This document shows, piece after piece, positions 2,339 through 21,050 of a DNA stretch of 64,000 nt. Position 1 is the stretch's first letter, and every line of letters begins with the position of its first letter. The DNA is taken from positions 128,001 to 192,000 of the forward strand of contig CAXXNO010000006.1 in the NCBI GenBank assembly GCA_963663235.2. Direction: 5' to 3'. Under the pieces are notes generated by a model. The model did no database searches. It worked only from the letters and a program-made list of their open reading frames with translations, and was not told the DNA's origin. The translations under genes were made by a program, and so were the position numbers. Origin of the DNA: Dehalococcoidia bacterium. Its GTDB lineage: Bacteria; Chloroflexota; Dehalococcoidia; Bin125.

Positions 2339-3580
2339 TGACCTGCCCCCGATCGTTGTACCAGTCGTTAAGTGAGTCCGATCGCCGGGACGCGCGTCAT
2401 GGGACGTTCCCGGGGTTGCTGCGTTTCCGGGGCGGGGGGGCGGGAGCCGAGGGCACGGTGGGGGCGGATCGGGTTGTCCTCCCGCCGCCAGCCCTTGATG
2501 AGGATCTGGGCTTCCAGCAGGGTGTCGAAGCGCTCGCGATTGAGGCACGCGTCGCGCAGCTTGCCGTTGAACGATTCCCCAGAGCCGTTCGCCCAAGGCC
2601 TGCCCGGTTCGATGAAGCGGGTCGTGCCCCCGACCCGGTGCAGCCAGTCCCGCACCGCGGTGGCGGTGCACGCCGGGCCGTTGGCGGACCGCAGAAACGT
2701 CGGCGGCCCGCGCTCGACGAACAGCTGGGCCAACCGCGCCAGGCCGACGTCGCGGCGCCGTCGGCGGGCGACGTCGAGACGCAGGCCCTCGCGGGTGGTC
2801 CTCATCCACGAGGGCGAGGATCCGCACCGGGCGCCCATCGGCGGTGCGGTCGAAGACGAAGGCGTCGGACCAGACGTGGGACGGCCGCTCGGCCCGCCGC
2901 CGCACCAGCGAGCCGGCCGCGAGCCAGCGGCGGCCCCGTTGGGGGTGCTTCCCGGGGACCCGCCAGCCTTCCTGACGCCAGCGCCGCTCGACCCGCTTGG
3001 GGTTCACCCGCCAGCCCGCCTGGCGCAGCCGGGCCGTGATGCGACGGGAGCCGTAGCGGCCGCAGCGGGTGGCCAGCGCGACGCTGCGCGCGATCAGCGC
3101 CGGCGCATCCGGGGACGGCCGGGGCACGTCGCGCTGTGTCGCCCGCGCCTGGCCGGTGACCGGGCAGGCCCGCCGCTCCGCCACCGCGTACGGGTCCGTG
3201 CGGTAGGATGTCACCCGGCGCCGCTTGGCCGGGCTCAGAAGTTTCCCGCTGCGACGTCCCGCACCATCGCGTTGGCCAGCGCCTGATCGGCCACCACCCG
3301 CTTCAGCCGACTGTTCTCGCGCTCCCGTTCTTTCAGCCGCTTGGCCTGGTCGACCCGCAACCCCCCGTCCTCCCGCCGCCAGCGGTAATACGTTGGCTCG
3401 GCCGCGCCGAGGCGGCGCGCGACCGGCGCGACCGATTCCCCCTGCGCGAGCACCACCTCCGCCTCCCGCAGGTTGCCGATGATCTCCTCGGCCGCGTACC
3501 GCTTGCGTGCCATGCCGACTCCCTTCGCACCGGCCCGAATCCTCGCACAGGATCTGGACCGGTTCTGGGGGGGCAGGTCA
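2339..3580 (-). mobile_element. IS3 family (IS407-like group) insertion sequence, degenerate copy 1
   Basis: 1242 bp; terminal IRs TGACCTGCCCCC...GGGGGCAGGTCA; orfA MARKRYAAEEII...AAGNF at 3235-3513; integrase-core orfB remnants (ESFNGKLRD, RPH.ALG). Confidence 0.95.
2368..3238 (-). pseudogene. IS3 OrfB DDE transposase, frameshifted with catalytic Asp residues lost
   Basis: WSDAF and RSANGPAC replace the conserved WSYDF and RSDNGPEF; +1 frameshift near 2797. Confidence 0.9.
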
Positions 3581-3745
3581 TCTTCTCCCCCCTCTCCATC
3601 GCTTGTCGATGGAGAGGGGGCCAGGGGGTGAGGTTCCATCGCTCGCCGATGGAGAGAGCCTGTCCTGAGCGAGCCGCAGGCGAGTCGAAGGAGGGCCAAG
3701 GGGCGCTTGCGCCCTTCGCACAGCGCAAGGGTGAGGTCATCCCTC
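3581..3745. repeat. REP-like composite unit (~160 bp)
   Basis: Reverse complement is near-identical to 21055-21215. Confidence 0.9.
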
Positions 3746-3809
3746 GCTCCCGTTGACCCCTCCCCACCCCCCACCTAGCCTGACACCGACCCCACGATGG
3801 GAGACGCAC

Positions 3810-4490
3810 ATGATCAAGACCGCCGCCTTCTTCAAGCGCACGCCCGGCATATCCGTCGAGGCCTTCGCCGACTACTGGCTCAACACCCACGCCGGCATCG
3901 TCGTGCGCATGCCCGGCATCCGCCGCTACGTCCAGTCCCACACCCTGCGCTCCGGCTACCGCAAGGGCGAGCCCGTCTACGACGGCGTCGCCGAGCTCTG
4001 GTTCGATGACATGGCGGCCGTCCGCGCCATGTCCAACACCCCCGAGTACGCCGCCGTCAAAGCCGACGAGCCCAACTTCATCGACCCCGCCACCATCGAC
4101 ACCATCATCACCGAAGAGCACATCATCAAGGACGGCCCCATCCCGCCCGACGGCGTCAAGAACATCGAGTTCGTCACCCACAAGCCGGACATGCCCATCG
4201 ACGCCTTCCAGCGCCACTGGCGCGAAGTGCACGGCCCCCTCGGCGCCGCCATCCCCGTCGTCCGCCGCTACGTCCAGAGCCACACCCGACTCGGCATCTA
4301 CGACAGCGGCCGCACCCCCGCCTACGACGGCCTGGCCATCACCTGGTTCGACGACACCCAGGCCATGCGCGTCTCCGCCACCACCCCCGAGTACGATCGC
4401 ACCCGCGCCGACGAGTCCAACTTCCTCGCCGGCGAGCTCTCCTTCATCATCACCAAGGAGCACGTCATCGTCGACGACGGCGAACGCTGA
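3810..4490 (+). CDS. EthD domain protein (two tandem EthD domains)
   Basis: Twice-repeated PG/DM..EAF..YW...H...RRYVQSH...YDG.A..WFDD...DE.NF pattern. Confidence 0.92.
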   Translation: MIKTAAFFKRTPGISVEAFADYWLNTHAGIVVRMPGIRRYVQSHTLRSGYRKGEPVYDGVAELWFDDMAAVRAMSNTPEYAAVKADEPNFIDPATIDTIITEEHIIKDGPIPPDGVKNIEFVTHKPDMPIDAFQRHWREVHGPLGAAIPVVRRYVQSHTRLGIYDSGRTPAYDGLAITWFDDTQAMRVSATTPEYDRTRADESNFLAGELSFIITKEHVIVDDGER

Positions 4491-4521
4491 CGAACCCCCT
4501 CGCCCTGAGTTTGTCGACGCA

Positions 4522-5280
4522 TCAACCCCCACCCGCCAGCCCGGGGGCGAGCCCCGGTTCCCAGATCACCGCGATCGCCAAGGCGAAAGCCGCGACCGCG
4601 ACGCCTCGCCCGAACTGCTCCCCTCGCGACCAATGCTTCTCGACTGCCACCACCGCCGCCAGCCCCACCATGGCCCACAGGTTCATCACGCCGAACGCGG
4701 CCATCAACGCCATCAACGACCAGCAACACGCCAGGCAGAACCATCCGTTGTGCGCGCCCGCGCGCAGATCGCGCAGCGCGCCTCGATACGATGCCACTTC
4801 GAAGATCTGCCCGATCGGTGAGCGGCAGTGTTGCAAGCATCGGGACTTCAGCGGTGTGAGCTGATAGACGCCGCACGCAGCGAAGATGCCGGCTGCGGCG
4901 ACCGTGCCGATGGCGGGCGCTGCAGCCGCGGCCTCGCCCGCCGCCCAGGCGATTCCAAACGCGGGTACGCCCGTCGCCCCCCACACCAGCAGGTACCCGA
5001 TGGCGAAGAGCAGCAGGCGTGGGGTCCGATTCGACACCACCGTCCGCGAGTACATCGACGCAAACGGCGCCGCCGACGGCAGCATCATCGCCGTCATCAT
5101 CAGCCCCCACATCACCGCAAAGGCGATGAAGTCCATGCCCATGGTGCCCGGCATGACGCCCATGTCGCGCGCCTGATCCACCGTCCACAGCCAGGCCAGC
5201 CCCGCGACTAGCAGCAGGGCCAGGACCTGCGGACGCAGCCACCGCCCGCCACGTGTCGAGGAGGTGGCTACGCGCTCCAT
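4522..5280 (-). CDS. DUF2182 predicted metal-binding integral membrane protein
   Basis: MW.LMMTAMMLPSAAP, YQLTPLK..CL.HCRSP, CLACCWSLM and GVMNL motifs. Confidence 0.92.
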   Translation of the reverse strand: MERVATSSTRGGRWLRPQVLALLLVAGLAWLWTVDQARDMGVMPGTMGMDFIAFAVMWGLMMTAMMLPSAAPFASMYSRTVVSNRTPRLLLFAIGYLLVWGATGVPAFGIAWAAGEAAAAAPAIGTVAAAGIFAACGVYQLTPLKSRCLQHCRSPIGQIFEVASYRGALRDLRAGAHNGWFCLACCWSLMALMAAFGVMNLWAMVGLAAVVAVEKHWSRGEQFGRGVAVAAFALAIAVIWEPGLAPGLAGGG

Positions 5281-5881
5281 GAGAAGGGGGCCCAATGCCC
5301 GTTCTTGCCGCTGTTGTCCCACTCCATGCCGAACGCTTTCACTCGGGACCGCTCGGCCCTGGCGATCGTCAACGTTGAGTTCGCCTGGTGGAACAGGTAC
5401 ACGCCCGTCACCTTGGAAACCTCGCCACCCGGCGTCTGCGGCGGGACGAAATCCTCGATCTCAATATCGATTGCATCCCCCACTTTGACGCGATGCCGGC
5501 GGCCTTCGTTCGTGTACTCGATTCGGGCCTGCTCCACTCCCAGTATCTCGCCGACCAGCGGATGCACCGCTGCCATCGGCCCGCCCAACTGACCCCCGAA
5601 CACGCGCCCCAGCGCCTCCGCCTGCTCCGAGGAGGCCCCGTCGTCCAGGATCAGCCCCACGCGCCAGTCACCGTCCGCCATCACCTTGGGCGTATCGGCA
5701 ACGATGACCACGCTGCGGTCGCTCACGTCCACCCTTCCACCTCGCCGGAGTCGACGTGAAACGCGAGCAGGACATGGCACCGCTCGTTGTCGGCGGGCGC
5801 CGTCAGCGCTGATGTGGTGCAAGGACACACGACGTCGCAGTTACAGTTCTCGAAGTAACTGCCATCCAGTTTCCACGTCAC
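5268..5881 (-). pseudogene. DUF1326 family protein, copy with a -1 frameshift (possible sequencing error)
   Basis: Paralogue of 6134-6742; GAAGGGTGGAC versus GAAGGGGTGGAC at about 5733. Confidence 0.8.
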
Positions 5882-5964
5882 GGTCTCACCGCCTTTCGTC
5901 GGGGTGGAAGGTTATTGATCTCGTTCGAGTGCTGTCAAACGATCCGGATCTCTGGGGCCAGGAG

Positions 5965-6088
5965 GCGAGGTCACTCCCTTCTCCTCCCCCTCTCCATCCT
6001 TCCCACCGGGGAAGGATGGAGAGGGCCTGTCCTGAGCGAGCCGCAGGCGAGTCGAAGAGCCTGTCCTGAGCTTGTCGAAGGGAGGGCC
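5965..6088. repeat. REP-like cluster between the duplicated DUF1326 units
   Basis: CTCTCCATCCTTCCC..GGGAAGGATGGAGAG hairpin plus CCTGTCCTGAGC...GTCGAAG modules. Confidence 0.9.
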
Positions 6089-6133
6089 GGACCTGCGGAC
6101 GCAGCCACAGTCCGCCGCGTACCGAGGAGGCGG

Positions 6134-6742
6134 CTACGCGCTCCATGAGAAGGGGGCCGAATGTCCGTTCTTCCCGCTGTTGTCCCACTCCATGCCGAAC
6201 GCCTTCACGCGGGACCGCTCGGCTTTAGCGATCGTCAGAGTCGAGTTCGCCATATGGACCATGCCTGTCAACTTGGAAACCTCGCCTCCGGGCGTCTGCG
6301 GCGGTACGAAATCCTCGATCTCGATGTCGATGGCATCCCCCACTTTGATGCGATGCCGGCGGCCTTCGTTTGCGTACTCGATTCGGGCCTGCTCCACTCC
6401 CAGCATCTCGCCGACCAACGGATGCACCGCTGCCATCGGCCCGCCCAACTGGCCCCCGAACACGCGCCCGAGCGCCTCCGCCTGCTCCGAGGAGGCGCCG
6501 TCGTCCAGGATCAGCCCCACGCGCCAGCCACCGTCCGCCATCACCTTGGGCGTATCGGCAACGATGACCACGGTGCGATCGCTCACGTCCACCCCTTCCA
6601 CCTCGCCGGCGTCGACGTGAAACGCGAGCAGGACCTGGCACCGCTCGTTGTCGGCGGGCGCCGTCAGCCCCGATGTCACACAGGGACACACCACGTCGCA
6701 GTTACAGTTCTCGAAGTAACTGCCATCCAGTTTCCACGTCAC
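6134..6742 (-). CDS. DUF1326 family protein
   Basis: W.L.G.YFENCNCDVVCPC, C...LAFHVD.G, and C-terminal GKNGHSAPFSWS; family neighbour of DUF2182. Confidence 0.92.
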   Translation of the reverse strand: MTWKLDGSYFENCNCDVVCPCVTSGLTAPADNERCQVLLAFHVDAGEVEGVDVSDRTVVIVADTPKVMADGGWRVGLILDDGASSEQAEALGRVFGGQLGGPMAAVHPLVGEMLGVEQARIEYANEGRRHRIKVGDAIDIEIEDFVPPQTPGGEVSKLTGMVHMANSTLTIAKAERSRVKAFGMEWDNSGKNGHSAPFSWSA

Positions 6743-6826
6743 GGGCTCACCGCCTTTCGTCGAGGTGGAAGGGTATCGATCTCATTCAAGTGCTGTCAAA
6801 CGATCCGCATCTCCGGGCACCCGCCC

Positions 6827-8014
6827 CTACTCCCGCGGCAGCCCCAGCCCTCGCTGCGCGATGATGTTCCGCTGGATCTCGCTCGTCCCCGCCGCGATCG
6901 CGTACGTCGTCGTCCCCATGTAGCCCAGCGGCAGCGCCCCGTACAGCGGCGGGTCCGCCGCCGACCCCCGCAGCAGCGCCCCGCCCAACCCCAGCATGTT
7001 CGTCCCGAATCCCGTGATCGCGCACGCCAGCTCCGACCCGAACACCTTCGCCATCGACGCCTCTGCGTTCGGCACCTGCCCCTGCGACTGCATCCACCCC
7101 ACCCGATACGCCAGCAGCCGCGACGCCTCCACTCCAATCCACAACTCCGCCAGTCGTTCCCGCACGATCGCGCGGTTCATCCCGCTCGGCTTCTCGCGTG
7201 CGTACCCGATCATCTCCTCCAGGATCCGCTTGCTCCACGCCACCCGCGAGATCCCGCTGCGCTCATAGTCCAGCGTCGTCGCCGCCACGTACCAGCCCCG
7301 GTTCTCCTCCCCCACCAGGTTCCGCACTGGTACCCGCACATCCTCCATCCACACCTCGTTGAAGGCGTGCGCCTCCAGCATGTTGATGATCGGCTTCACC
7401 GTGATCCCCGGTGAGCGCATGTCCATCAAGAGGTAGGAAATCCCTTTGTGCTTGGGCGCTTCTGGATCGGTGCGAACCAACAGCATGCACCAGTCCGCCC
7501 GATGCGCCCCGCTGGTCCAGATCTTCTGGCCGTTCACCACGTAGTCGTCTCCGTCGCGCACCGCCCGCGTCTGCAACGACGCCAGGTCCGACCCGCTCCC
7601 CGGCTCCGAGAACCCCTGGCACCAGACCTCATCGCCCGCCGCGATCGCGGGCAGATGCTCCTGCTTCAGCTCTTCGCTCCCCCAGTGCATCAGCGTCGGC
7701 CCCGCCATCGACACCGCCATCAGCGTCCCCACGCCCGTCGGCGCCGCGTGGTACCCCGTCTCCTCGTTGTAGATCACCTGCTGCATCACGCTGACCCCGC
7801 GGCCCCCGTACTCCTCCGGCCAGTGCATCGTCAGCCAGCCGCGGGCCGCCAGCTTCTTCACGAACCGCCGCGACGCATCCGCGTACTGGGATCCCTCCGT
7901 CTCCCGGTCGCTCTGCAGCTGCCAATGATCGGCCGGCAGCTCCTCCCGCAAGAACTCCCGGATCTCCTCCCGGAACGCCTCTTCCTCTGGGGTGAACTTG
8001 AACTCAATCGTCAT
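6827..8014 (-). CDS. Acyl-CoA dehydrogenase family protein
   Basis: WCQGFSEPGSGSDLASL, VNGQKIWTS and IAAGTSEIQRNIIA; SD GGAGG before ATG 8014. Confidence 0.96.
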   Translation of the reverse strand: MTIEFKFTPEEEAFREEIREFLREELPADHWQLQSDRETEGSQYADASRRFVKKLAARGWLTMHWPEEYGGRGVSVMQQVIYNEETGYHAAPTGVGTLMAVSMAGPTLMHWGSEELKQEHLPAIAAGDEVWCQGFSEPGSGSDLASLQTRAVRDGDDYVVNGQKIWTSGAHRADWCMLLVRTDPEAPKHKGISYLLMDMRSPGITVKPIINMLEAHAFNEVWMEDVRVPVRNLVGEENRGWYVAATTLDYERSGISRVAWSKRILEEMIGYAREKPSGMNRAIVRERLAELWIGVEASRLLAYRVGWMQSQGQVPNAEASMAKVFGSELACAITGFGTNMLGLGGALLRGSAADPPLYGALPLGYMGTTTYAIAAGTSEIQRNIIAQRGLGLPRE

Positions 8015-8942
8015 GTTGGACCTCCGTCTCGGCCGCTGCGTCCCTAGGACCACCGAGCCCATAGGCGACGTGCGCTCTCTCGAACAACCGCCTCAGGAGC
8101 GGTAGATGTTCGCTGAATTCATTCGTGTGTATTTGGAATCTGACCCTCGCCTTGTCTCTCGAATAGTGCAGAAGCACAAAGCCAACTTCCTCGATCTCCC
8201 TCTCGGCCTTCTCTTTGTCGGTCGTCCGAGCGGTCACTTCCAGCCATCTCTTCTTTGGTCTGAACCTCACGAAATGAGCGGGACGATTGTTCACCGTCAG
8301 GCCGATGAAGTGTCGGTTGTAACGCAAGGATGCTCCTGGCTCGATCTCGTGCACCAACTCAAGACATCGATCGGTCAGTTTGAGTGTGGCGACACTCCCG
8401 AGCTTTTCCCAGTACGCACGATCGGCGGGCTGCTCGGGCTCCTCATCTTCGGTTGGCCCAATCTCAAATTCATCCAAGACCTTCGTGAAGGTCAGAAGGA
8501 TCTGGCTATCAACCTTCAACGCTTTCATCTGGATCGCGATCAGCGGCACGGTGCGATTGAACAACTGGATCACATTGATGAATCGGCTCGTGATCTCTTC
8601 GGCGACGATCACCGCACAGTGGTCGTAGTGCGGGAACCGTCGTCGCTCGACGTCCCAATATTCCAGCGTGCGGATGATGTGGCTCTCGTCAACGGCCCCG
8701 AGCATCAGCTCCATTTCGTATCGCCGATTGCCTTCATCGTCGATCAGGAGCAGATCCAGGCGCCCACCACCCGGGATCGGTTTCTCCGTCGCCACCAACC
8801 GCAACTCACCCAGCCCGAGGATCTGCGGTTCCTCGGCGATTTGCTCCTGCACCCACTTCTCGTTGAACTGCGTGTGCCCCTTGAGTGAGACGACCTCGTG
8901 CTTCGTATAGGTCAGCTGCTCTGGAAACGGCCCGCTCGTCAT
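8004..8942 (-). CDS. PD-(D/E)xK nuclease-like protein (NucS/restriction endonuclease-like N-terminal domain)
   Basis: E..VQE.IAE.P.ILGLG, GRLDLLLID, YEMELMLG..DESHIIR.LEYW and AVIVAE; visibly lower GC than neighbours. Confidence 0.7.
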   Translation of the reverse strand: MTSGPFPEQLTYTKHEVVSLKGHTQFNEKWVQEQIAEEPQILGLGELRLVATEKPIPGGGRLDLLLIDDEGNRRYEMELMLGAVDESHIIRTLEYWDVERRRFPHYDHCAVIVAEEITSRFINVIQLFNRTVPLIAIQMKALKVDSQILLTFTKVLDEFEIGPTEDEEPEQPADRAYWEKLGSVATLKLTDRCLELVHEIEPGASLRYNRHFIGLTVNNRPAHFVRFRPKKRWLEVTARTTDKEKAEREIEEVGFVLLHYSRDKARVRFQIHTNEFSEHLPLLRRLFERAHVAYGLGGPRDAAAETEVQHDD

Positions 8943-8944
8943 CC

Positions 8945-9751
8945 CTACCGACCCTTAAACTCCGGCGCCCGCTTCTCCCGGAACGCCGCCGGCCCCTCTT
9001 TCGCGTCCTCCGACGCCCGCGCGATCGTGATCGCCTGCTCCGCCATCTCCAGCGCTTCGTGCATCCCCACCATCTGCGACCGGTACGCTAGCCGCTTCGT
9101 CAGCTGGATCGCCACCGCCGCCCCCCGCGCGATCTCCTGCGCGAACTTCATCGTTTCCGGTAGCAGATCCTCGGCCGGGACCACCCGCTGCACGTAGCCC
9201 ATCGCCAGCGCCTCTTCCGCCTGGAAGATTCGCCCCGTCCACATCAGCTCCAGCGCCCGCGACATGCCCACGATCTTCGGCAGGAAGTAGGCCCCGCCGT
9301 CGCCCGGCGTCAGCCCCACCCGCACGTAGCCCATCCCGAACTTCGCCTTGTCCGACGCGATGCGGATGTCCGCCATCGACGCCATATCCATCCCCGCCCC
9401 CACCGCCGCCCCGTTCACCGCCGCGATGTACGGCTTCTCCAGGTTCAGCAGCGCCCGCGGCACAGCGTGCACGCTGTGCCGCAGGTTGTTCCGGCCCGCG
9501 ACCACGCTCTCGCTCCCGCCGTACAGGTCGCCCCCCGCCCGCCCGCTCGACATGTCCCCGCCCGAGCAGAAGCCGCGCCCCGACCCCGTCACTACGATCG
9601 CCCGCACGTCCTCGTCCCGCGACGACCGCGCGATCGCGTCCGTCCACAACTCCAGCATCTCGGGGCTGAAGGCGTTCATCTTCTCCGGCTGGTTCAGGGT
9701 GATCACCGCGACGTGATCCTCCACCTCGTACAGCAACGGCGCATCCGGCAT
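8945..9751 (-). CDS. Enoyl-CoA hydratase/isomerase family protein
   Basis: ITLNQPEKMNA, GRGFCSGGD, IAAVNGAAVGAG and AFREKRAPEFKG. Confidence 0.95.
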   Translation of the reverse strand: MPDAPLLYEVEDHVAVITLNQPEKMNAFSPEMLELWTDAIARSSRDEDVRAIVVTGSGRGFCSGGDMSSGRAGGDLYGGSESVVAGRNNLRHSVHAVPRALLNLEKPYIAAVNGAAVGAGMDMASMADIRIASDKAKFGMGYVRVGLTPGDGGAYFLPKIVGMSRALELMWTGRIFQAEEALAMGYVQRVVPAEDLLPETMKFAQEIARGAAVAIQLTKRLAYRSQMVGMHEALEMAEQAITIARASEDAKEGPAAFREKRAPEFKGR

Positions 9752-9790
9752 CCGGCTTCCTCCCTGCCCGGCGACCCACGCAGGCCGCCG

Positions 9791-10730: not shown

Positions 10731-10785
10731 AAAGTCGCGCGGGCAGTCGCCGCTCTCGGCGCCTGACCCACGCACAGGCCTGGCG

Positions 10786-13301
10786 TCAGGGGAGGCAGTC
10801 CCCGAACACTCGCAGCTCCGCCACGCTGATGAAGTCCGCCGTGCCGCCCGGCGCGCCGATGATCCGGATGCCGTCTCCGCTGATCGGGTCGAATGTCAGG
10901 TTGAACGCTTCGTAGGAGACCCCGTTGTCGGCCGCCGGGTAAGCCGGTGTGATCGTCAGCCCTGTCACTTCCACCCAGACGCCGCCCTGACGCACCTCCA
11001 CCGTCAGCGTGTTGAACCAGCCACCATTGATGAAGTGCAGCCCTTCTTGGAAGAACACCTCGCTCCACTCGTGCGCTGAATCGAACGCGTAGCCGATCCA
11101 GCCCTCGCTGGCGGCGTTGACGCCATCGAACGTGTCGTACCCCAGCAGCAGCTCCAGGCTGCCGGCCGGCGGCAGCACGCCGTCGCGGATGACGTTGATG
11201 TCCGGGTTCGACACCCCTGTGGGCGCCGTCACCTGCGCGATGATCTCCCCGCCGGTCGCGCTCAGGTCGACCCCGCAGCTGATCGGCGTCAGTGCCTGGG
11301 GGAGCGGCAGCGGCGGTGGAGGCGGCGGTGGGAGCGGGGGCGGCTCCTCGCAGTCCCCAAAGACCCGTAGTTCCCCCACCGTGATGAAGTCCGTCGTGCC
11401 GCCCGGCGCGCCGATGATCCGGATGCCGTCTCCGCTGATCCGGTCGAACGTCAGGTTGAACGCCTCGTAGGAGACCCCGTTGTCGCTGAACGGGTAGGCC
11501 GCAGTCTCCGAAGACCCGCAGCTCCCCCCGGAGATGAAGTCGGCCGACCCCCCGGGCGCGCCGATGATCCGGATCCCATCCCCGGCGTGAGGCGGCGGCG
11601 GGGGCAACTCCCCGCAGTCTCCGAAGACCCGCAGCTCGGAGATGAAGTCGGCCGACCCCCCGGGCGCGCCGATGATCCGGATCCCATCCCCGCTGATCGG
11701 CTCGAACGCCAGCAGGAACGCTTCGTGACCGTCAAGCCTGTCACCGCCACCCAGACCCCGCCCTGGCGCACCTGCACCGTCAGCGTGTCGAACCATCCCC
11801 CGTCGCCAAAGTGCAGCCCTTCTTGGAACAGCACTTCCTCCCACTCGTGCTCCGACCCGAACTCGTACCCGATCCAGTCCTCGCTGGACACGTTGACGCC
11901 GTCGAACGTGTCGTAGTTCCGCAGCGGGTCCAAGTTGCCCGTGGGCGGCAGGTCGCCGTCCCGGATCACGCCGATGCCCGGGCTGGACACGCCCGTCGGC
12001 GCCGTCACCAACGCGATGATCCCGCCCTCGGTGGTCAGGTCGGTGTCGCAACTCGCTGTCGGCGGCGGCACGATCGGCGGCGGCAAAAGAGGCTCTTCCG
12101 GATCGGAAGGCGGATCGGGATCGGGAGGATCGGGAGGATCGGGCGGGCTGTCGCAGTCCCCAAAGACCAGCAACTCCCCCACGGAGATGAAGTCGGCCGA
12201 CCCCCCGGGCTCGCCGAACAGCCGGATCCCATCCCCGACGATCGGATCGAACGTCAGCACGAACGCTTCGTAGGAGATGAAGCCGTTGTTCTCTGAGTGG
12301 TACCGCGGCGTGATTGCGAAGTCGCCGACGTCCACCCAGACCCCGCCCTGGCGCACCTCCACCGTCAGCTTGGTGAACCAGCCGCCGTTGGGGAAATGCT
12401 TCCCCTCCTGGAACAGCACCGCCTCCCACGAATACGCCGACGAATAGACGTACCCGATCCAGTCTTCGCCGGATCGATTGCTGCCGTCGAAGGTGTCGTA
12501 GTGGCGCGACGCGTCCCGGTTCCCGACCAGCGGCATGTCCCCGTCGCGGATCACTCCCAGGTCGCGGCTTCCGGCGCCCGTCGGGTCCGTCACCCGCGCG
12601 ATGATGTCCCCGCGGCCGCTGAGATCGCGGCACTCCGGAAGCGCGGGCAGGCGCGGCATCCGGCAGTCCGCGTATACCCACAACTCCGCCACCGAGATGA
12701 ACGCGGCTGAGCCGCCCGGCCGCCCCACCAGTCGGATGCCGCTGCCGTCGATCGGGTCGAACCGCAGCGTGTAGCGATCGAAGGAGCGGCCGTCGTTGCG
12801 AAACGGGTACTCCGGCGTGATCGAGAGCCCCGTCACGTCCACCCAGTCGTCGCCCTGGCGCACCTCCACGATCAGCGATTCGAACCACCCGCCGTTGCCG
12901 TAGTGCCGCCCTTCTTGGAAGAGGATCATCTCCCAGGTAGGCGAGAAGTCGAACGCGTAACCGATCCAGTCGAAATCGACACCGTTGACGCCGTCGTACG
13001 TGTCGTACTGCCGCAGCGGGTCCGTGCTCCCGGGCGACGGCCGCCTCCCGTCGCGGATCACTTCGATGTCCGGGTTGCCGATCCCCGTCGGCGACATCAC
13101 TCGCGCGATCGGCTCGCCGCTACGCGTCAGGTGCTCGCACACCCGGCCCTGCTCGGGGGCCGCGTACACCGGCTCCGCCCTCGATAGAACGGCCGCCATG
13201 ACGAGCGCGAGCCCGATGAGCGCCAGCAGTGGCAGCGCCGGCGGTGGCAGCGCCGGCGCTGCGTCGCCTATCCGTCGCGGAGGACGGCAACGTGCACGCA
13301 T
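10786..13301 (-). pseudogene. Secreted repeat protein with about 150-aa beta-sandwich (discoidin/CBM-like) domains; internally scrambled and frameshifted
   Basis: Signal-peptide-like N-terminus; repeated IIA.V..PTG..IRDG..YDTFDG..DWIGY.F..FQEG.H..GGWF..G.PGG.ADFIS..EL.VFGDC; Pro linkers; split over ORFs 11451-13340 and 10786-12888. Confidence 0.75.
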
Positions 13302-13510
13302 CCCGTGCAGCGCCCAAGACACGCCTTGTTGCACGCGCATTTCCTAAAACTCGCCGAGGAAACATCGTACCAGCGCGCCGTAGGCCGTCAATCGTCACTC
13401 ACTCTCGCTGCGTGTTGGCGACTGGCGGACGCGCATCTCCGCGACGAATTACAGGCGATGGTCTGCCGACTTTCGTCGCACGGCCTCGTTAACTTTTCTC
13501 AATGCCCGAC

Positions 13511-13747
13511 CCCGTTGTCGACGCACCACCCTCTTGCGCGGCGCAGCCGCGCCAAACGACACCATGACCTCCAACGCCCTACGCCCCCGTCAGCCGCACC
13601 CGATCCCCCACCCCGGCGCCGTTGTCGGCGAACCACCCTCCTGCGCGGCGCAGCCGCGCCAAACGACACCGTCACCTCCAACGCCCTACGCCCCGGTCAG
13701 CCGCACCCGATCCCCCACCTCGACGCCGTTGTCGACGAACCATCCTT
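13511..13747. repeat. 107-bp tandem repeat (about 2.2 copies) containing the 3' end of the DUF192 gene
   Basis: GTTGTCG..G.ACCA at 13514, 13621 and 13728; stop-codon context repeated at 13579 and 13686. Confidence 0.9.
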
Positions 13748-14405: not shown

Positions 14406-14434
14406 AGCCTACGGCAGGCCACCGCCCGCCACCC

Positions 14435-14885
14435 CCGTTCGCTCTGCCTGCCCTGAGCCTGCCGAAGGGCCAAAGGTGGGGCGGGGGAGTGAGGCCCCTT
14501 CTCCCGCCCCGTTCGTCCTGAGCGAAGCCTGTCCTGAGCTTGTCGGAGGGTCGAAGGAGAACGGGGCAGCCCTGTGATCCTTCCCCCTCTTCCCCCTCTT
14601 CCCCCTCTTCCCCCTCTTCCCCCTCTCCATCCTTCCCTCCCGGGAAGGATGGAGAGGGCCTGTCCTGAGCGAGCCGCAGGCGAGTCGAAGGGGGCCGCGG
14701 TCAGGTCTACCCCCACACCCTCCGCCGCGCACAATTGCCGCTGCCCACCCCCGACGCCCCACTCGCGATGGAATAAAAACCCCCTCGCCATCGCTTGCCG
14801 ATGGAGAGGGGGCCAGGGGGTGAGGTTTCCCCTTCCCTGCCCTGAGCCTCCCCTGAGCCAGCCGCGGGCGAGTCGAAGGGGGCCG
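14435..14885. repeat. REP/BIME-like mosaic cluster including a (CTTCCCCCT)n tract
   Basis: Same modules as elsewhere plus CCCGTTCGTCCTGAGCGAAG and GGGCCGCGGTCAGGTCTACCCC...CGCGATGGAATAAAACCCCC. Confidence 0.9.
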
Positions 14886-14905
14886 GGACTGAGGTCAGCG
14901 CCGGA

Positions 14906-16297
14906 TCAATTCGCCGGCTGGAAGAGCGGGTTTCCGCCCACGACGAACGCCTGCTCTGCCGAGATGTCGGTGGCGTCCGTGTCGTGGAACATGAAGTTCA
15001 TGCCGTCGGGGCACTCGTCCGCTTCCACGATGCCATCGCCGTTGGTGTCGAAATCGATAGAGCACTCCGGCGTGTCGCCGATGACGTCGAATGCCCCACC
15101 GTCGGACTCGCTGGTGTGGAACAACCCCAGCAGATGCCCTGCCTCGTGCCAGGCGGTCGTCGCGTTCTGGGCCAGGGTGAAATCCTCCGCGTTCGCCGTG
15201 ACGACGACACACGAGGTGCTGCTGTCCTCCAGGACGGTGGCGCCGGGAATCCCGGCCGCGTTGCCGAGCGTCGTGCCGAACGGGTCGTCGGGATCGACCA
15301 CGCGATCGATGATCACGAAGTGCAGGCTGCGGTCTTGTCCGAACGTGTCCGACATCGCCTGGCAGAGCTGGCGTTGTGACGTGTCGATGCCGTTCGTCGG
15401 CAGCTGGAGGTCCCCGAACTCGGCGGTGATTTCCGCGGGCGCATCAATGAAGCGCACGGTCCCGATGCCGAGATCGAAGGGACCGAAAATATCGTCGGCG
15501 CGCTCGCGGAAGATCGTTTCGATGTTCGCGCGGCCCGCCTCGTCGGCGACTTCGTCGCTTGAGGTGGCCACCCAGAACGTGACATCCAGGACCTGCGCGG
15601 CCCCGGCCGCATCCCCCTTAACGATGGCCTGCGCCGTCGTCGCGACGTCGGCTTCCACCGTGACCGTGTACTCGCCGGGCGTGAGCGCCGCTTCGCCGTT
15701 CAACGGCGCCAGGACGGAGCCCTCACCGAAGTTCTGCAGCGGCTCAATGAGCGCATCCAGCAGGGAGCCGCCGTCCGGTCCAGTGACGTCCACGATGGTG
15801 ACCAAATCGTCGATGCCCGGCGCCTGCGCGACGAAGAGGAACGACGTTTCGCCTTCCTGCACCGTGACGGTCACCGTGCCGCCGCCGGCAGGGATGGCGC
15901 CGAGGTCGGCGAAGCGCAGGTCACCGCCGTCCGCTTCTGGCGGCGGCGGTGCTTTCCCGTCCAGGGCGATCTCCTGCGAACCCTCGGAGACGACCCAGAG
16001 CACGTCGCCGTCCGACAGTGCAAAGTCCACGACACCAAGGAGGGGGACGAAAGACGTCCAGTTGACGGCCAAGGGGTCGAACAGCCAGGCGATCTTCACC
16101 GTGCCGAACACGTCACTGGCGCTGAAGCCGGGACCGAAGGTCCAGAAGAGGAACTGTCCACCGTCGCTAAGAGAGATGGTGTCGCCGGGCTCCTGCGCCT
16201 CGACGTCGGATCGGGCAGGCAGGGCCCCGAGGAGGGAGATCGTGAGGATGAGGAGGACGAGGAGTTGGACGGCGCGGGCGCGGCGGATCCTGGGCAT
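14906..16297 (-). CDS. Secreted metzincin zinc metalloprotease (M43/pappalysin-like) with an N-terminal DGGQF-type module
   Basis: HEAGHLLGLFH zinc motif, D.IGDTP and Met-turn NFMF; Ca-loop-like DTNGDGIV; signal peptide. Confidence 0.82.
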   Translation of the reverse strand: MPRIRRARAVQLLVLLILTISLLGALPARSDVEAQEPGDTISLSDGGQFLFWTFGPGFSASDVFGTVKIAWLFDPLAVNWTSFVPLLGVVDFALSDGDVLWVVSEGSQEIALDGKAPPPPEADGGDLRFADLGAIPAGGGTVTVTVQEGETSFLFVAQAPGIDDLVTIVDVTGPDGGSLLDALIEPLQNFGEGSVLAPLNGEAALTPGEYTVTVEADVATTAQAIVKGDAAGAAQVLDVTFWVATSSDEVADEAGRANIETIFRERADDIFGPFDLGIGTVRFIDAPAEITAEFGDLQLPTNGIDTSQRQLCQAMSDTFGQDRSLHFVIIDRVVDPDDPFGTTLGNAAGIPGATVLEDSSTSCVVVTANAEDFTLAQNATTAWHEAGHLLGLFHTSESDGGAFDVIGDTPECSIDFDTNGDGIVEADECPDGMNFMFHDTDATDISAEQAFVVGGNPLFQPAN

Positions 16298-16399
16298 GGA
16301 CGACTCCGTCTGTTGGGCTGGCCTTGAGCGATCGGCGGTCAGTCTAGTAGGGCGGGGCCATCGACAACACCGACGCCGAGCGCACCACCTGTACCGGCC

Positions 16400-17120
16400 C
16401 AGAACGGGCCGCGGTCAGGTCTACCCTCCCGCACCCTCCGCCGCGCACAACTGCCGCTGCGCCGTCCCCCACGCCCCACTCGCGATGGAATAAAACCCCC
16501 TCGCCGTCGCTTGCCGATGGAGAGAGCCTGTCCTGAGCGAGCCGCAGGCGAGTCGAAGGGAGCCTGCCGCCCTGAGCCTGTCGAAGGGTCAAAGGTGGGA
16601 CGGGGGAGTGAGGCCCCCTCTCCCGCCCCGTTCGTCCTGAGCGAAGTCGAAGGAGAACGGGGCAGCCCTGTGATCCTTCCCCCTCTCCTCCCGCTCTCCA
16701 TCCTTCCCAGGAGGGAAGGATGGAGAGCGCCTGCCAGGAGCGAGCCACAGGCGAGTCGAAGGAGGGCCAGGGGGCGCTTGCGCCCTTCGCACAGCGGAAG
16801 GGTGAGGTCTCCCCTCCCCGTCCTGTGCTCATCGAACGGGCCGCGGTCAGGTCTACCCCCCCCCCACCTTCCGCCGCGCACAACTGCCGCTGCGCCGCCC
16901 CCCACGCCCCGCTCGCGATGGAATAAAACCCCCTCGCCATCGCTTGCCGATGGAGAGAGCCTGTCCTGAGCGAGCCGCAGGCGAGTCGAAGGAAGGCCAG
17001 GGGGCGCTTCCGCCCTTCGCACAGCGGAAGGGTGAGGTCTCCCCTTTCCCTCTCGTTCCTCCCCTCTCCATCCTTCCCAGGAGGGAAGGATGGAGAGGGG
17101 GCCAGGGGGTGAGGTTCCCT
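16400..17120. repeat. Largest REP/BIME-like mosaic cluster (~720 bp)
   Basis: Multiple copies of all modules; 16404-16560 is repeated at 16835-16992. Confidence 0.92.
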
Positions 17121-17182
17121 CGCCTTGCGACGCTCGACTCCCAGCGCTACCTTCCGCCCGCAGTCTCCAGGAGTGCCACCCC

Positions 17183-18235
17183 ATGAAATTTGGCGTCCTC
17201 TTCGACTTCCGCAACCCCGCCCCGCCGCTCGGCTCCGGCCGCTCGACCCCGGATCTCTACGCCACCATCCTCGACCAGGTGCAGCAGGCCGAAGACCTCG
17301 GCTACGACGACGTCTGGCTCACCGAGCACCACTTCCTCGACGACGGCTACCTCCCCTCTCTCGCTCCGATGGCCGCCGCCATCGCCGCTCGCACTTCGCG
17401 CGTCACGATCGGCTTCTTCGTGCTGCTGATGCCCTTCCACCACCCCATCCGCCTCGCCGAAGACCTCGCCGTCGTCGACAACCTCAGCAACGGCCGCCTC
17501 CTCTTCGGCCTCGGCGTGGGCTATCGCTACCCGGAGTTCACGGCCTTCGGCATCGACCGCAAGTTCCGCGGCTCCATTACCGATGAAGCCGTCCAGATCA
17601 TGATCAAGTGCTGGGAGGAAGAGGAGTTCTCCTTCCACGGCAAGCACTTCAACTTCGAGGGCGTCCGCTGCACCCCCAAGCCCGTCCAGAAGCCCCACAT
17701 CCCCGTCTGGTTCGGCGCGACGCAAGGCGAGGCCCTCAAACGCGCCGCCCGTCTCGGCGACGGCCTCCTCCACACCATCGCCGCCCCCACCGATGCCCCC
17801 CTCAAGTTCGCCCAGCACCTCAAGGAGTACGGCAAGGACTGGCGCAACCCCCACGTCCTCTCCATGGCCTTCCTCCACACCACCAACGACCCCCAGTGCG
17901 ACTGGGACGCCCTCAAGCCCCACGCCCTCTACCACGCCCAGGGCTACGCCACCTGGTACGCCCAGGACGAGAACTGGCAGGAGGGCACCAGCGCCGCCAA
18001 CTTCGGCGGCGACTACCCCCGCGACTACGCCACCCTCGAGCGCCTTGGCCACTACACCGTCGGCACGCCCGACCAGATCATCGCCAAAGTCAAAGAGGTC
18101 TACGCCCAAGCGCCCTTCGAGCGCTTCCTCTTCCCCGCCCTGCTTCCCGGCGCCGATCCCGCCCTCTCCGCCCGCTCCCTGGAGCTCTTCGCCACGGAGT
18201 GCATCCCCGCTCTCCGCGACCTCGACGCCAAGTAG
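17183..18235 (+). CDS. LLM-class flavin-dependent oxidoreductase (luciferase-like monooxygenase)
   Basis: AEDLGYDDVWLTEHH, HPIRLAED.A.VD.LSNGR, PKPVQKPH.P.W and VGTPD. Confidence 0.95.
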   Translation: MKFGVLFDFRNPAPPLGSGRSTPDLYATILDQVQQAEDLGYDDVWLTEHHFLDDGYLPSLAPMAAAIAARTSRVTIGFFVLLMPFHHPIRLAEDLAVVDNLSNGRLLFGLGVGYRYPEFTAFGIDRKFRGSITDEAVQIMIKCWEEEEFSFHGKHFNFEGVRCTPKPVQKPHIPVWFGATQGEALKRAARLGDGLLHTIAAPTDAPLKFAQHLKEYGKDWRNPHVLSMAFLHTTNDPQCDWDALKPHALYHAQGYATWYAQDENWQEGTSAANFGGDYPRDYATLERLGHYTVGTPDQIIAKVKEVYAQAPFERFLFPALLPGADPALSARSLELFATECIPALRDLDAK

Positions 18236-18239
18236 CCTT

Positions 18240-18320
18240 CTTCTCCCCCTCTCCATCGCTTGTGACGGAGAGGGGGCCAGGGGGCGCTTGCGCCCTTCGC
18301 ACAGCAGAAGGGTGAGGTTT
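18240..18320. repeat. REP-like cluster between convergent genes
   Basis: GGGGCGCTTGCGCCCTTCGCACAGC.GAAGGGTGAGG module. Confidence 0.85.
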
Positions 18321-18323
18321 CCT

Positions 18324-18680
18324 TTACTCCTCCACTCCGTAAACGCTGGCCTCCAGCCGTTCCTCCGACGCATGCCCTACGAACTCCACCCGACTCTCGA
18401 TCCGCCGCACCCACCGCACGCTGTCGTCCGGCCAGAACCCCTCCGCCGTCAGCGCGTCCAACACCCGCTTGATGCGAAAGTTGTCCAGGTCGCGCGGGTA
18501 CTGCGTCGGCAGCGCGAACCACCCCGCCTCGATCTCGTACCACTCGTACGACTTCCGCGGCAGCCGGCGCACCAGCTCCGCCTGCACGCACCCGCGCACC
18601 TTCTCGTCCCACGGCTGGTTCGCCGCACCCAGCTTCTCCGTGTGCACTCCCGGCACGACGATCCGCAGCACTTCCTCCAC
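18324..18680 (-). CDS. RusA-like endonuclease/resolvase family protein
   Basis: RDLDN...K..LDAL...G.W.DDS..V matches the RusA DxDN-K-DAL-DD catalytic signature. Confidence 0.6.
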   Translation of the reverse strand: MEEVLRIVVPGVHTEKLGAANQPWDEKVRGCVQAELVRRLPRKSYEWYEIEAGWFALPTQYPRDLDNFRIKRVLDALTAEGFWPDDSVRWVRRIESRVEFVGHASEERLEASVYGVEE

Positions 18681-18687
18681 GCCGCCC

Positions 18688-19080
18688 TCACGCCTCCGCG
18701 ATGCAATCGATCTCGATGTCGAACTCCCACGGCCACGACCCCACCGTCACGAACGTCCGCGCCGGCGGCTGCTCGCCGAAGTACCGCTCGTACACCGCGT
18801 TCACCGTCGGGTAGTACGCCGAGTTCGAGATGTACACCGTCGCCTTCACCACCTTCTCCAGCGACGATCCTGCCGCCTCCAGCGCCGCCTTCACGTTCTC
18901 CAGCGCCAGCTCCGTCTGCCTCACGATGTCCGCCAGCGGGATCTTCCCCGACGCCGGATCGATCGGCGGCATCCCCGACACGAACACAAAGCCACCCGCC
19001 TTCACCACCGGCGACAGCGGCACCTTCGCCGCCTCGATCGCCTCCGACACCCCCGCCACCCGGAACGTCTCCTTCGTCAT
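18688..19080 (-). CDS. RidA/YjgF family protein
   Basis: FVFVSG..PIDP, L.AAGSSL..VVK.TVY, N.VY..YF...PPART and IEIDCIA. Confidence 0.95.
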   Translation of the reverse strand: MTKETFRVAGVSEAIEAAKVPLSPVVKAGGFVFVSGMPPIDPASGKIPLADIVRQTELALENVKAALEAAGSSLEKVVKATVYISNSAYYPTVNAVYERYFGEQPPARTFVTVGSWPWEFDIEIDCIAEA

Positions 19081-19115
19081 CGTCCTGCCTTTCTCTTCTC
19101 CCGCGCGCGCGACCC

Positions 19116-19595
19116 CTACGCGATGAACGGCTCCTTGACCCACCCACTCTCGTACGGCGTCATGTAGAAGATCTCGGTCCGTACGTGCCGGAACCGCCAG
19201 CGACCGTCCCGCTTCATGTAGTCGTCGTCGTACGTCGCCGCCAGCCACACCGCGCGACCGTCCACCGTCAGCGTCTCGAACGTGTACCAGTGCCCCGTCG
19301 CCTCCTCGCCCGAGGCCCCGATCTCGATCGTCGGCCCCATCAGGTAGTGCAGACTGAACGTCACCGACTCCGACACTTGCGCGAAGAACTGCCGGATCGC
19401 CTCCTTGCCTTCCATCCGCCCGTGGTAGTTCGCCTCCCACACCGCGTCGTCCGTGAACTGCGCCAGCAGCCCCGCCTGCGGGAACGGCCGCTCGCCCCCG
19501 ATCCCCGCGTCGATGTACCGCCCGTACCCGTTCTTCAGCGCACAGATCGCCTCGATCTCCTCCAGCCGCCGCACCCGCTCCCTCAGCGTCGCCAT
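19116..19595 (-). CDS. SnoaL-like/NTF2 family protein (BaiE/LinA-like fold)
   Basis: LEEIEAI.ALK..Y...D, FTDDAVW, H....P.IEI, ATG.WY and Y.DDY...DGRWRF. Confidence 0.9.
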   Translation of the reverse strand: MATLRERVRRLEEIEAICALKNGYGRYIDAGIGGERPFPQAGLLAQFTDDAVWEANYHGRMEGKEAIRQFFAQVSESVTFSLHYLMGPTIEIGASGEEATGHWYTFETLTVDGRAVWLAATYDDDYMKRDGRWRFRHVRTEIFYMTPYESGWVKEPFIA

Positions 19596-19808
19596 CATTC
19601 CCTCCTAGCCGAGCACTCCGCGCCGTCACCTACTCGATCGCCTCTAGCTGCGCTCGCTGGCTAGCCCGATCAAGGTAGGATCCCTCTAAAGTTCAACTCG
19701 ACCAACTCTGCTCCACTCGGAGATCAGATGACCTATCCCAGAGATTTCATTTCACCTTCTAACTTCGACCTTGCATTAACCCGCTTGCTCCGAGGGCAAA
19801 ACTCCGAC

Positions 19809-21050
19809 TGACCTGCCCCCCCAGAACCGGTCCAGATCCTGTGCGAGGATTCGGGCCGGTGCGAAGGGAGTCGGCATGGCACGCAAGCGGTACGCGGCCG
19901 AGGAGATCATCGGCCACCTGCGGGAGGCGGAGGGGGTGCTCGCGCAGGGGGAATCGGTCGCGCCGGTCGCGCGCCGCCTCGGCGTGGCCGAGCCAACGTA
20001 TTACCGCTGGCGGCGGGAGGACGGGGGGCTGCGGGTCGACCCGGCCAAGCGGCTGAAAGAACGGGAGCGCGAGAACAGTCGGCTGAAGCGGGTGGTGGCC
20101 GATCAGGCGCGGGCCAACGCGATGGTGCGGGACGTCGCAGCGGGAAACTTCTGAGCCCGGCCACGCGGCGCCGGGCGACATCCTACCGCACGGACCCGTA
20201 CGCGGTGGCGGAGCGGCGGGCCTGCCCGGTCACCGGCCAGGCGCGGGCGACCCAGCGCGACGTGCCCCGGCCGTCCCCGGATGCGCCGGCGCTGATCGCG
20301 CGCAGCGTCGCGCTGGCCCCCCGCTGCGGCCGCTACGGCTCCCGTCGCATCCCGGCCCGGCTGCGCCAGGCGGGCTGGCGGGTGAACCCCAAGCGGGTCG
20401 AGCGGCGCTGGCGTCAGGAAGGCTGGCGGGTCCCCGGGAAGCACCCCCAACGGGGCCGCCGCTGGCTCGCGGCCGGCTCGCGGGTGCGGCGGCGGGCCGA
20501 GCGGCCGTCCCACGTCTGGTCCTCCGCCTTCGTCTTCGACCGCACCGCCGAGGGGCGCCCGGTGCGGATCCTCGCCCTCGTGGATGAGGACCACCCGCGA
20601 GGGCCTGCGTCTCGACGTCGCCCGCCGACGGCGCCGCGACGACGGCCTGGCGCGGTTGGCCCAGCTGTTCGTCGAGCGCGGGCCGCCGACGTTTCTGCGG
20701 TCCGCCAACGGCCCGGCGTGCACCGCCACCGCGGTGCGGGACTGGCTGCACCGGGTCGGGGGCACGACCCGCTTCATCGAACCGGGCAGGCCTTGGGCGA
20801 ACGGCTCTGGGGAATCGTTCAACGGCAAGCTGCGCGACGCGTGCCTCAATCGCGAGCGCTTCGACACCCTGCTGGAAGCCCAGATCCTCATCGCGGGCTG
20901 GCGGCGGGAGGACAACCCGATCCGCCCCCACCGTGCCCTCGGCTCCCGCCCCCCCGCCCCGGAAACGCAGCAACCCCGGGAACGTCCCATGACGCGCGTC
21001 CCGGCGATCGGACTCACTTAACGACTGGTACAACGATCGGGGGCAGGTCA
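19809..21050 (+). mobile_element. IS3 family (IS407-like group) insertion sequence, degenerate copy 2 (inverted relative to copy 1)
   Basis: 1242 bp, same IRs; orfA at 19876-20154; orfB dead with the same frameshift; 18 substitutions versus copy 1 by manual comparison. Confidence 0.95.

Follow-up and report, generated by a model that had tools for sequence, protein, structure and literature searches.

Two insertion sequence copies in the window

The stretch of DNA analysed here, referred to as the window, comprises 64,000 nucleotides of a contig from a Dehalococcoidia bacterium (CAXXNO010000006.1, positions 128,001 to 192,000; assembly GCA_963663235.2) and carries two copies of an insertion sequence (IS) of the IS3 family. 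These copies belong to a larger family in the same genome, the members of which differ from one another mainly by A/C and G/T transversions. The source genome (G000) has a size of 2.75 Mb in 14 contigs, with a G+C content of 67-70% per contig, and is 91.9% complete. Both window copies are 1242 nt long and face each other as inverted arms with 99% complementarity. The element ends in TG...CA and its 12-nt terminal inverted repeats (TGACCTGCCCCC) are perfect, in agreement with the original prediction, which had described the inverted repeats as intact. The features of the two copies are the following:

2339..3580, minus strand (transposase genes): IS3-family element copy 1, 1242 bp, A:T>C:G-converted and predicted to be non-autonomous
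19809..21050, plus strand: IS3-family element copy 2, 1242 bp, in the opposite orientation to copy 1, from which it differs at 18 positions
3235..3513, minus strand: orfA of copy 1, 92 codons, open; HTH_Tnp_1 (PF01527), 57.8 bits
19876..20154, plus strand: orfA of copy 2, 92 codons, open according to the list of open reading frames
2786..3235, minus strand: N-terminal orfB remnant of copy 1, with HTH_21 and WSDAF (A replaces D in the first D motif); frame -1 with respect to orfA
2377..2781, minus strand: C-terminal orfB remnant of copy 1, in the third frame behind a 1-nt insertion, with RSANGPAC, PWANGS, RDACL and REDN
3569..3580, no strand: left terminal inverted repeat of copy 1, which reads TGACCTGCCCCC when oriented like the transposase genes
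2339..2350, no strand: right terminal inverted repeat of copy 1, 12 nt

Like the members of the IS3 family, the element encodes an OrfA with the HTH_Tnp_1 domain and, in the -1 frame, an OrfB with the HTH_21, rve and rve_3 domains, between TG...CA ends. The IS3 model itself was reached through an intact relative from another genus (G005a, L005:1816-2700), which scored 223.9 bits with NF033516 (cut-off 160), 62 bits with rve and 94.3 bits with rve_3. A slippery motif for the change of frame between orfA and orfB was not identified. In the window copies, unlike in the family as described, the D, D and E residues of the motifs are gone, orfB contains an additional single-nucleotide insertion and target-site duplications were not seen. 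The frames of copy 1 were recognized by HTH_21 with 40.9 bits, by rve_3 with 72.3 bits and by rve with 17.1 bits, the latter below cut-off, compared to 60.6, 99.7 and 36.7 bits, respectively, for a copy of the element from a further genus (G003a).

The motifs WSYDF, RSDNGPEF and PWENGY, which we take to be the carriers of the DDE catalytic residues in IS3 and integrase enzymes, are lost from both window copies, where they read WS(D/S)AF, RSANGPAC and PWANGS. Two sister copies in the same genome, described below, supplied the unconverted counterparts: WSYDF is represented by WSDAF in copy 1 and WSSAF in copy 2, RSDNGPEF by RSANGPAC, PWENGY by PWANGS, RDECL by RDACL and REYN by REDN. The departures from IS3 motifs that had been proposed on the basis of the window alone, EDN among them, were thereby confirmed. 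On these sequence grounds, the window elements are predicted to be dead, non-autonomous IS3-family copies with a destroyed transposase.

The 1-nt insertion in orfB (window positions ~2781-2800, minus strand; IS nt ~780-800) reads GAGGACCAC versus GAGTA-CAC and shifts the frame at IVDE(D/Y). It is common to the G000 family, to both sister copies and to the G003 copies G003a, b, d and e, and is absent from G003c, G005a and G005b; downstream of it, lineages that have diverged by 15% still share a protein-like frame. Possible explanations are that recoding occurs a second time, that a patch was converted repeatedly or that the transposase is split. Target-site duplications of 3-5 bp were found at none of the 12 full G000 copies, nor at G003a, G003b, M035 (L035) and M039 (L039), and as a record of transposition they are uninformative, being lacking even at unmutated relatives. 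At the junction, the letters 'aaga' are found both left of copy 1 and right of copy 2, as would be compatible with an inversion between the two elements.

Substitution spectrum of the IS family and of the rest of the genome

BLAST comparison revealed that the family in G000 consists of 12 full-length copies and five copies cut by contig ends, with 97-99% identity. The two sister copies, out1 (C8:175120-176361) and out2 (C4:40353-41599), are ~85% identical to the family and keep WSYDF, RSDNGPEF, PWENGY, RDECL, REYN and HSALGY. Both of them have the 5-bp sequence 'gactc' on both sides, and their flanks are common to the two, which indicates a single insertion that was later copied by segmental duplication.

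Realignment of copies 1 and 2 reproduced exactly the coordinates and the count given at the outset, i.e., 18 differences without gaps, of which 13 were A/C or G/T, four were transitions and one was A/T. When all 17 copies were compared with their majority consensus, 210 substitutions were obtained, 177 of them A/C or G/T and 19 transitions. The variable sites, polarised by out1 and out2, comprised 45 A:T>C:G changes, three in the reverse direction, 13 transitions and four other transversions, besides three sites that were unpolarisable and 35 columns with indels or complex changes. From out1 to the consensus, 57 A:T>C:G changes versus five reverse ones were accompanied by ordinary divergence (54 G/C changes and 59 transitions), and the G+C content is 69.6% in out1 vs 74.3% in the consensus. 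The conversion has affected ~14% of the A:T pairs in all copies and a further ~13% in part of them, and with it the G+C content of the element went up from ~70-71% to 74%. Most full copies have 0-2 indel columns, with 3, 8 and 10 in three of them. The A/C-G/T bias in this family is far beyond chance.

The element was furthermore searched for in 65 genomes of the order, G000 included, and full-length relatives were found in three of them, counting G000; the genomes G003 and G005 represent two other genera. The five family copies of G003 are 95.5% identical to the G000 family consensus. G003a, which retains the canonical transposase motifs, differs from the consensus at 55 positions, all of them A/C or G/T (T>G 27, A>C 21, C>A 5, G>T 2), so that 48 run A:T>C:G, with zero transitions and zero G/C changes. 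For normally diverged lineages of the element the corresponding proportion is ~27 A/C-G/T changes per 116 other changes. Five unconverted relatives have 321 A/T sites in common, at which the consensus shows 46 changes of the A:T>C:G type and a single A>G; at 796 conserved G/C sites it carries 17 changes of ordinary kinds. The coding changes include 44 non-synonymous and two synonymous ones, with rates of 11%, 17% and 11% at the three codon positions; such similar rates and the preponderance of non-synonymous changes argue that they were not shaped by selection.

The same signature recurs lightly in G003 and heavily in one copy of G005. Pairs of G003 copies differ by 12/1, 7/0, 4/0, 4/0, 3/0 and 1/0 changes (A/C-G/T vs other), and one G003 copy holds seven A/C-G/T changes in ~110 bp, five of which are also present in G000 copies. 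In G005 the element forms a head-to-tail tandem of the lightly affected G005a and the heavily converted G005b, the latter with 59 A:T>C:G changes versus six other changes at the 321 conserved sites and with the motifs reading WSDAV, NGPAC and RDACL. G005b represents an old lineage of its own and has 121-162 differences other than A/C-G/T from every other full-length copy compared. When sister strains were sought for a genome-wide SNP spectrum, a scan of metagenomes, from which near-identical records may be missing, yielded only relatives with ~88% identity or less, and the genome scan gave seven loci in two records.

The tandem itself (L005:1501-3985; G005:C1:578532-581016) consists of two elements ~80% identical to each other with 4 nt (cacg) between them, an arrangement that resembles the tandem-dimer junction of IS3-type transposition. 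Contig C1 of G003 (L062-L066) additionally carries five copies of a 78%-related IS without mismatches over ~1250 bp; this IS interrupts two of the G003 family copies and is presumably young and active.

Among the explanations offered in the original prediction was a mutT-like mutator acting on the whole genome that becomes visible in neutral DNA only; a standing mutation bias is considered here together with it. The spectrum itself, the G+C-rich genome and the finding of no MutT equivalog, which is non-diagnostic as detailed below, would agree with it. The rest of the genome, however, was found to be ordinary. The window provides four control sequences:

5271..5825, minus strand: DUF1326 paralogue 1, ordinary spectrum
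6137..6739, minus strand: DUF1326 paralogue 2, ordinary spectrum
3588..3737, no strand: repeat resembling repetitive extragenic palindromic elements (REP-like), modular, outside copy 1 at 8 bp from the IS; boundary control
21059..21208, no strand: twin, outside copy 2, of the REP-like modular repeat at 3588-3737

Other repeat pairs at 97-100% identity contain 227 transitions versus 87 A/C-G/T changes, whereas family pairs in the same two identity bands contain 1413 A/C-G/T changes versus 242 transitions. Except for one pair (5 of 11), no other repeat pair with at least eight differences reaches 40% A/C-G/T. The DUF1326 paralogues, in which no obvious bias had been noted at the outset, are separated by 34 transitions, 13 A/C-G/T, 10 C/G and two A/T differences. 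Across 56 REP-like intergenic modules, 11 A:T>C:G and 10 reverse changes were counted along with 60 transitions and 15 C/G changes, and out1 and out2, diverging in place, yielded 15 polarised changes with only one A:T>C:G and five C:G>A:T. Whether the bias stops at the IS boundary had been left for checking, and it does: the REP-like twins 8 bp outside the IS have five mismatches in 150, by eye four transitions and one C/G, with zero A/C-G/T.

Hence, a steady mutator is excluded by the ordinary spectra of other repeats, REP modules, DUF1326 paralogues, flanks and out1/out2, and a transient one is excluded as well: older repeat pairs would then contain additional A/C-G/T divergence of several percent, but at most 2.7% is seen in them. 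The singletons of the family (7 A:T>C:G vs 6 transitions) likewise stand against a genome-wide bias, an explanation that we consider scarcely credible. The A:T>C:G conversion is a feature of this IS family rather than of the mutation spectrum of the genome. The rival suggestion of a repeat-directed process has held in part: the changes are confined to the IS family and stop at its boundary, but the independent hits expected from a process akin to repeat-induced point mutation (RIP) did not materialize, as most lesions are shared and few are private.

The REP-like elements are built of palindromic modules of ~45-58 nt, with 27, 8 and 21 copies of three modules that are often clustered. In the window they lie at 3588-3737, 16424-17047 and 21050-21208, and the two window IS copies adjoin them.

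As assemblies err at repeats, a sequencing or assembly artefact in a high-copy repeat has to be taken into account. The region 1500-4500 of the window was compared with Logan contigs of four public runs from two studies, which may include the assembly's own source and are in that respect not fully independent; a further 16 runs, with small shares of 0.05-0.15, were outside this comparison. Alternative letters were present in the run contigs at 27 positions inside the IS, 24 of them A/C-G/T and often with a large share of the depth, while the unique flanks matched, with 0-2 other letters over up to 832 nt; three differences among the runs were all transitions. The four runs thus carry both alleles at the 27 positions. 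Furthermore, out1 and out2 share most local contexts with the family yet keep A/T, and the same signature is present in two other assemblies, all of which makes an artefact very improbable. The summed contig depth over window positions 2339-3580 in the four runs exceeded the depth of the unique flanks ~50-300x, much more than the 17 copies of the assembly would give. The excess may stem from additional carriers in the samples, from copies missing in the assembly or from an extrachromosomal form; it does not represent a copy number, since depths of all organisms are summed.

Distribution of the converted sites and candidate mechanisms

Both strands of the element are affected equally, with 23 A>C and 23 T>G changes at the conserved sites, and the two types are interleaved (runs tests, p = 0.88 and 0.11). 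The sequence context is weak and amounts to no motif: T at position +1 is avoided (2 of 48 mutated vs 48 of 308 unmutated sites) and G at +1 is favoured. The C 5' of the mutated A, to which the original prediction had drawn attention, occurs at 20 of 48 mutated and 106 of 308 unmutated sites and is not clearly enriched. Conversions are evenly spread over the interior of the element. In its first 106 nt (window 3475-3580), none of the 34 A/T sites is converted in the consensus relative to G003a (P = 0.005), and the last 35 nt show one difference, which is private to G003a.

Frequency and linkage were analysed in the 12 full G000 copies with their 43 variable A:T>C:G sites. The derived base is present in at least six copies at 22 of these sites, compared to two of the 12 sites of all other classes (Fisher p = 0.049), and all eight variable transitions are restricted to at most three copies; singletons number seven for A:T>C:G and six for transitions. 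As many as 41% of 595 site pairs failed the four-gamete test, with no decay with distance, the mean signed r among the 43 sites was ~0.01, and ~40 distinct carrier patterns occur among the 12 copies. As a steady mutation bias cannot produce different frequency spectra in two neutral classes that share one genealogy, A>C changes must have been supplied early and for a limited time, unless A>C alleles were driven. Shared lesions had originally been taken as a sign that the dead element was copied in trans or by gene conversion; this stands, and the unlinked, reticulate pattern favours conversion.

Several simpler accounts of this pattern were rejected. Fixed hot spots with independent hits are contradicted by G003a and G003b, which hold six derived sites absent from all 12 G000 copies; these two copies are also without the 20 A:T>C:G sites that are fixed in G000. 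The converted sites of G000 and G005b overlap at 15 positions versus 8.5 expected (p = 0.009), about twice chance. Templated conversion from diverged relatives was rejected for the relatives at hand, as six of them hold the derived base at 1-5 of the 46 converted sites and at 11-26 of ~270 unconverted sites, i.e., at the same rate. Strand-coordinated clusters were not upheld either, with p = 0.07 within 150 bp in an unbiased test and no significance beyond that distance; a post hoc count by hand gave 11 of 14 adjacent pairs of the same type among sites with identical carriers (binomial p ~0.03).

The purity of the spectrum narrows the known chemistries down to two, namely incorporation of 8-oxo-dGTP opposite A or the action of MutY on A·G mismatches. 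MutY of E. coli corrects A·G to C·G in heteroduplex DNA, with the A on either strand. The best reading of our data, which we put forward tentatively and with somewhat less than even confidence, is a transversion-specific biased gene conversion among the copies via a MutY-type adenine glycosylase that acts on A·G mismatches. The many copies would form heteroduplexes with one another by ectopic recombination, and wherever an A:T pair in one copy faced a C:G pair in the other, an A·G mismatch would result. A host MutY-type glycosylase, if active on A·G, would excise the A from whichever strand carries it, and one-nucleotide base-excision repair would then put in C:G. Provided that A>C mutations arise often enough, each A>C or T>G change, in whichever copy it occurred, would thus be driven through the family site by site, whereas transitions and other changes would drift. 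The excision by MutY of adenine opposite 8-oxoG is described in PMC13511376.

Under such a mechanism spared ends are expected, because conversion needs homology on both sides, and unlinked sites are the expected result of one-nucleotide repair, unlike that of descent on a tree. We favour the drive model because it would jointly predict the purity and the direction of the spectrum, the high-frequency skew, unlinkage at short range, the spared ends and the restriction to one old high-copy family. The data show changes of the A/C-G/T class towards C:G, a skewed frequency of the derived base and unlinked sites. Several copies that could recombine within one cell are present in G000 (17) and G003 (5), and G005b is solitary.

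A candidate gene for such an enzyme is present, as revealed by profile searches for repair genes in five genomes. All five encode a MutY-like protein that consists of the catalytic domain only, and all five also encode Fpg and DinB-like proteins. The MutY-like protein of G000 (L067:183-926, minus strand, C12) has 248 aa and no C-terminal domain and scores 206.6 bits with TIGR01084, below the cut-off of 286.5; among proteins of solved structure, MutY catalytic domains are closest to it (E = 1e-45). The state of this gene and the extent of conversion can be set side by side in three genomes, which are too few for a conclusion: it is intact in the heavily converted G000, split in the lightly converted G003 and present in two copies in G005. 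The second MutY-like paralogue of G005 (C1:593379-593999) lies ~12 kb from the converted tandem, in a region with IS fragments.

A number of observations weigh against MutY-type conversion. Conversion tracts left no direct trace (permutation p = 0.45), and strand coordination is weak. According to our own estimate, based on 17 copies with no transition fixed since the split from G003a, A>C changes must arise at least ~5-6 times more often per site than transitions, whereas the ratio is ~1 as judged from REP modules and other repeats and ~4, with a wide error, from the family singletons. Because of this gap in mutation supply the model has to assume in addition that a larger number of copies interact, that copies are exchanged between cells or that the A>C input is elevated. 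The only other G000 family with at least four copies (seven copies) displays six A/C-G/T changes versus 14 transitions, a comparison of low power. G005b has no partner above 81% identity in its genome except a 94-nt fragment. The MutY-like protein of G000 resembles, in addition, an enzyme for G-T mismatches (1kea, E = 1e-38), and the MutY-like gene of G003 (L068, C1:1561400-1562500) is split by a frameshift, yet the G003 copies differ almost only by A/C-G/T.

The second chemistry leads to an episodic, mutT-type hypermutation by 8-oxo-dGTP of the lineage that propagated, followed by its spread and by ordinary conversion shuffling. Hypermutation could have taken place in a MutT-deficient cell line, on another replicon or during bursts of synthesis with 8-oxo-dGMP placed opposite A. 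Loss of mutT is classically recognized by a spectrum that consists almost solely of A:T>C:G, and with published E. coli mutT rates a conversion of 14% would be accompanied by less than one change of another kind in 1.2 kb, in line with the 55 to 0 observed between G003a and the consensus. An AT-to-GC spectrum of mutT-deficient strains is reported in PMC3274465. The equal, interleaved strands and the weak context fit this origin, and the solitary G005b fits a transferred copy that was already mutated. Near-identical copies in different genera (55/0) indicate that the element moves between hosts. The MutT equivalog TIGR00586 was above cut-off in none of the five genomes, a result that is non-diagnostic because only 3 of 14 control genomes pass and several Nudix genes are present.

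On the other hand, the present chromosome never had a mutator phase, so that a second host or replicon must be invoked, and many separate entries or heavy shuffling would be needed to explain 43 unlinked variable sites. Hypermutation alone predicts neither the high-frequency skew, nor the unlinkage, nor a spared stretch of 106 nt, which is longer than the 12-nt terminal repeat. No mutator genome was noticed among the 65 genomes searched for the element, a search aimed at the element and not at spectra. On balance, hypermutation in another host or replicon seems rather unlikely to us.

Error-prone polymerases were rejected as the direct cause, since the mixed spectrum of DnaE2, described as diverse in PMC9346131, cannot give 55 to 0. 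Genes of this kind do occur beside one of the IS copies (C12:52953-54202, L072), where a tyrosine integrase (2789-3856) is followed by an ImuB-like protein with IMS and IMS_C domains (4178-5497) and a DnaE2-like protein (5750-9004). The block of ~10 kb (G000:C12:52900-63600) has a duplicate at C9:139293-148579, with at least two copies in the genome, and looks like an SOS-mutagenesis cassette on a mobile block.

A third possibility is a dedicated IS-directed editing or repair system, a counterpart of RIP in some Chloroflexota, that would recognise this IS, convert A:T to C:G on both strands of the interior, spare the ends and in this way silence mobile DNA. The sharp boundary (13 of 18 differences A/C-G/T inside the IS vs 0 of 5 in the repeat 8 bp outside) and the extremely specific chemistry would suit it, as would the recurrence in three genomes of three genera and the converted sites that co-occur modestly above chance; literature searches gave no prior description of such a system. 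Independent hits in place are, however, not the main source of the changes, with seven singletons among 43 variable sites besides the fixed ones. Neither a motif nor a guide-like feature was found, and no enzyme is known to us that turns A into C. A candidate editing gene was not found near the window elements, where the neighbouring genes are ordinary metabolic ones, and no match to the reverse transcriptase family PF00078 (RVT_1) was obtained in G000 or G003, which also led us to reject a route through reverse transcriptase or a diversity-generating retroelement (DGR). We therefore regard a dedicated system as improbable. The remaining probability falls to something beyond the explanations listed here.

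Elsewhere in the window, the region 10783-13116 (minus strand) contains several families of direct repeats. It lies within an ORF at 11454-13337 (628 aa) that has a weak F5/8 type C match; the repeats are ~500-780 bp apart with 62-84% identity, and the ORF looks like one that encodes an internally repeated protein.

Relation to known systems and biological meaning

Among known processes, MutY-dependent and GC-biased gene conversion shares with the changes in this family the loss of A:T to C:G, the restriction to A/C-G/T, sites left unlinked as by one-nucleotide repair, a requirement for homologous copies that recombine, and an encoded homologue. It differs in that an IS family with ~20% A:T>C:G conversion was not found in the literature and in that the predicted enzyme is without the C-terminal 8-oxoG-recognition domain. 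The mutT mutator resembles the process seen here in that almost all changes are A:T>C:G, both strands are affected and the context is weak, but in mutT the whole genome is affected, whereas here the rest of the chromosome is spared, the sister IS and the intergenic repeats included.

Fungal RIP is alike in being a directional point mutation limited to repeated mobile DNA, with genes destroyed and a sharp boundary. It proceeds by C>T transitions in a dinucleotide context and affects each copy independently, in contrast to the transversion, the weak context and the mostly shared lesions described here. Diversity-generating retroelements also change adenine, and a high fraction of adenines. They turn A to any base, act on one strand of a short target and require reverse transcriptase; the family shows A>C only, on both strands equally and over the whole interior, in genomes (G000 and G003) with no RVT_1 match.

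Neither A:T>C:G-converted IS nor a MutY-driven conversion bias in repeat families was found in the full-text literature, a search that left subscription journals largely outside. The process is similar to mutT mutagenesis in its chemistry, to MutY-based correction and GC-biased conversion in its logic and to RIP in its outcome, and it is a member of none of them as described.

Pseudogenes and dead mobile elements of bacteria are expected to decay in a transition-rich and AT-biased manner. In the genome studied here, by contrast, one class of transversion has changed an entire IS family towards G+C and has left the surrounding genome as it was. In practical terms, such elements inflate the local G+C content and escape transposase annotation, as illustrated by the drop of the rve score from 36.7 to 17.1 bits. 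If a mutator host were the true origin, mobile elements would be recorders of short-lived mutator lineages, and if a dedicated system were true, it would represent a new kind of genome defence. Should the preferred MutY-type conversion be true, the family would offer a rare natural case that ties a named repair enzyme to GC-biased drive, and would make the mechanism of GC-biased gene conversion in bacteria accessible to testing.

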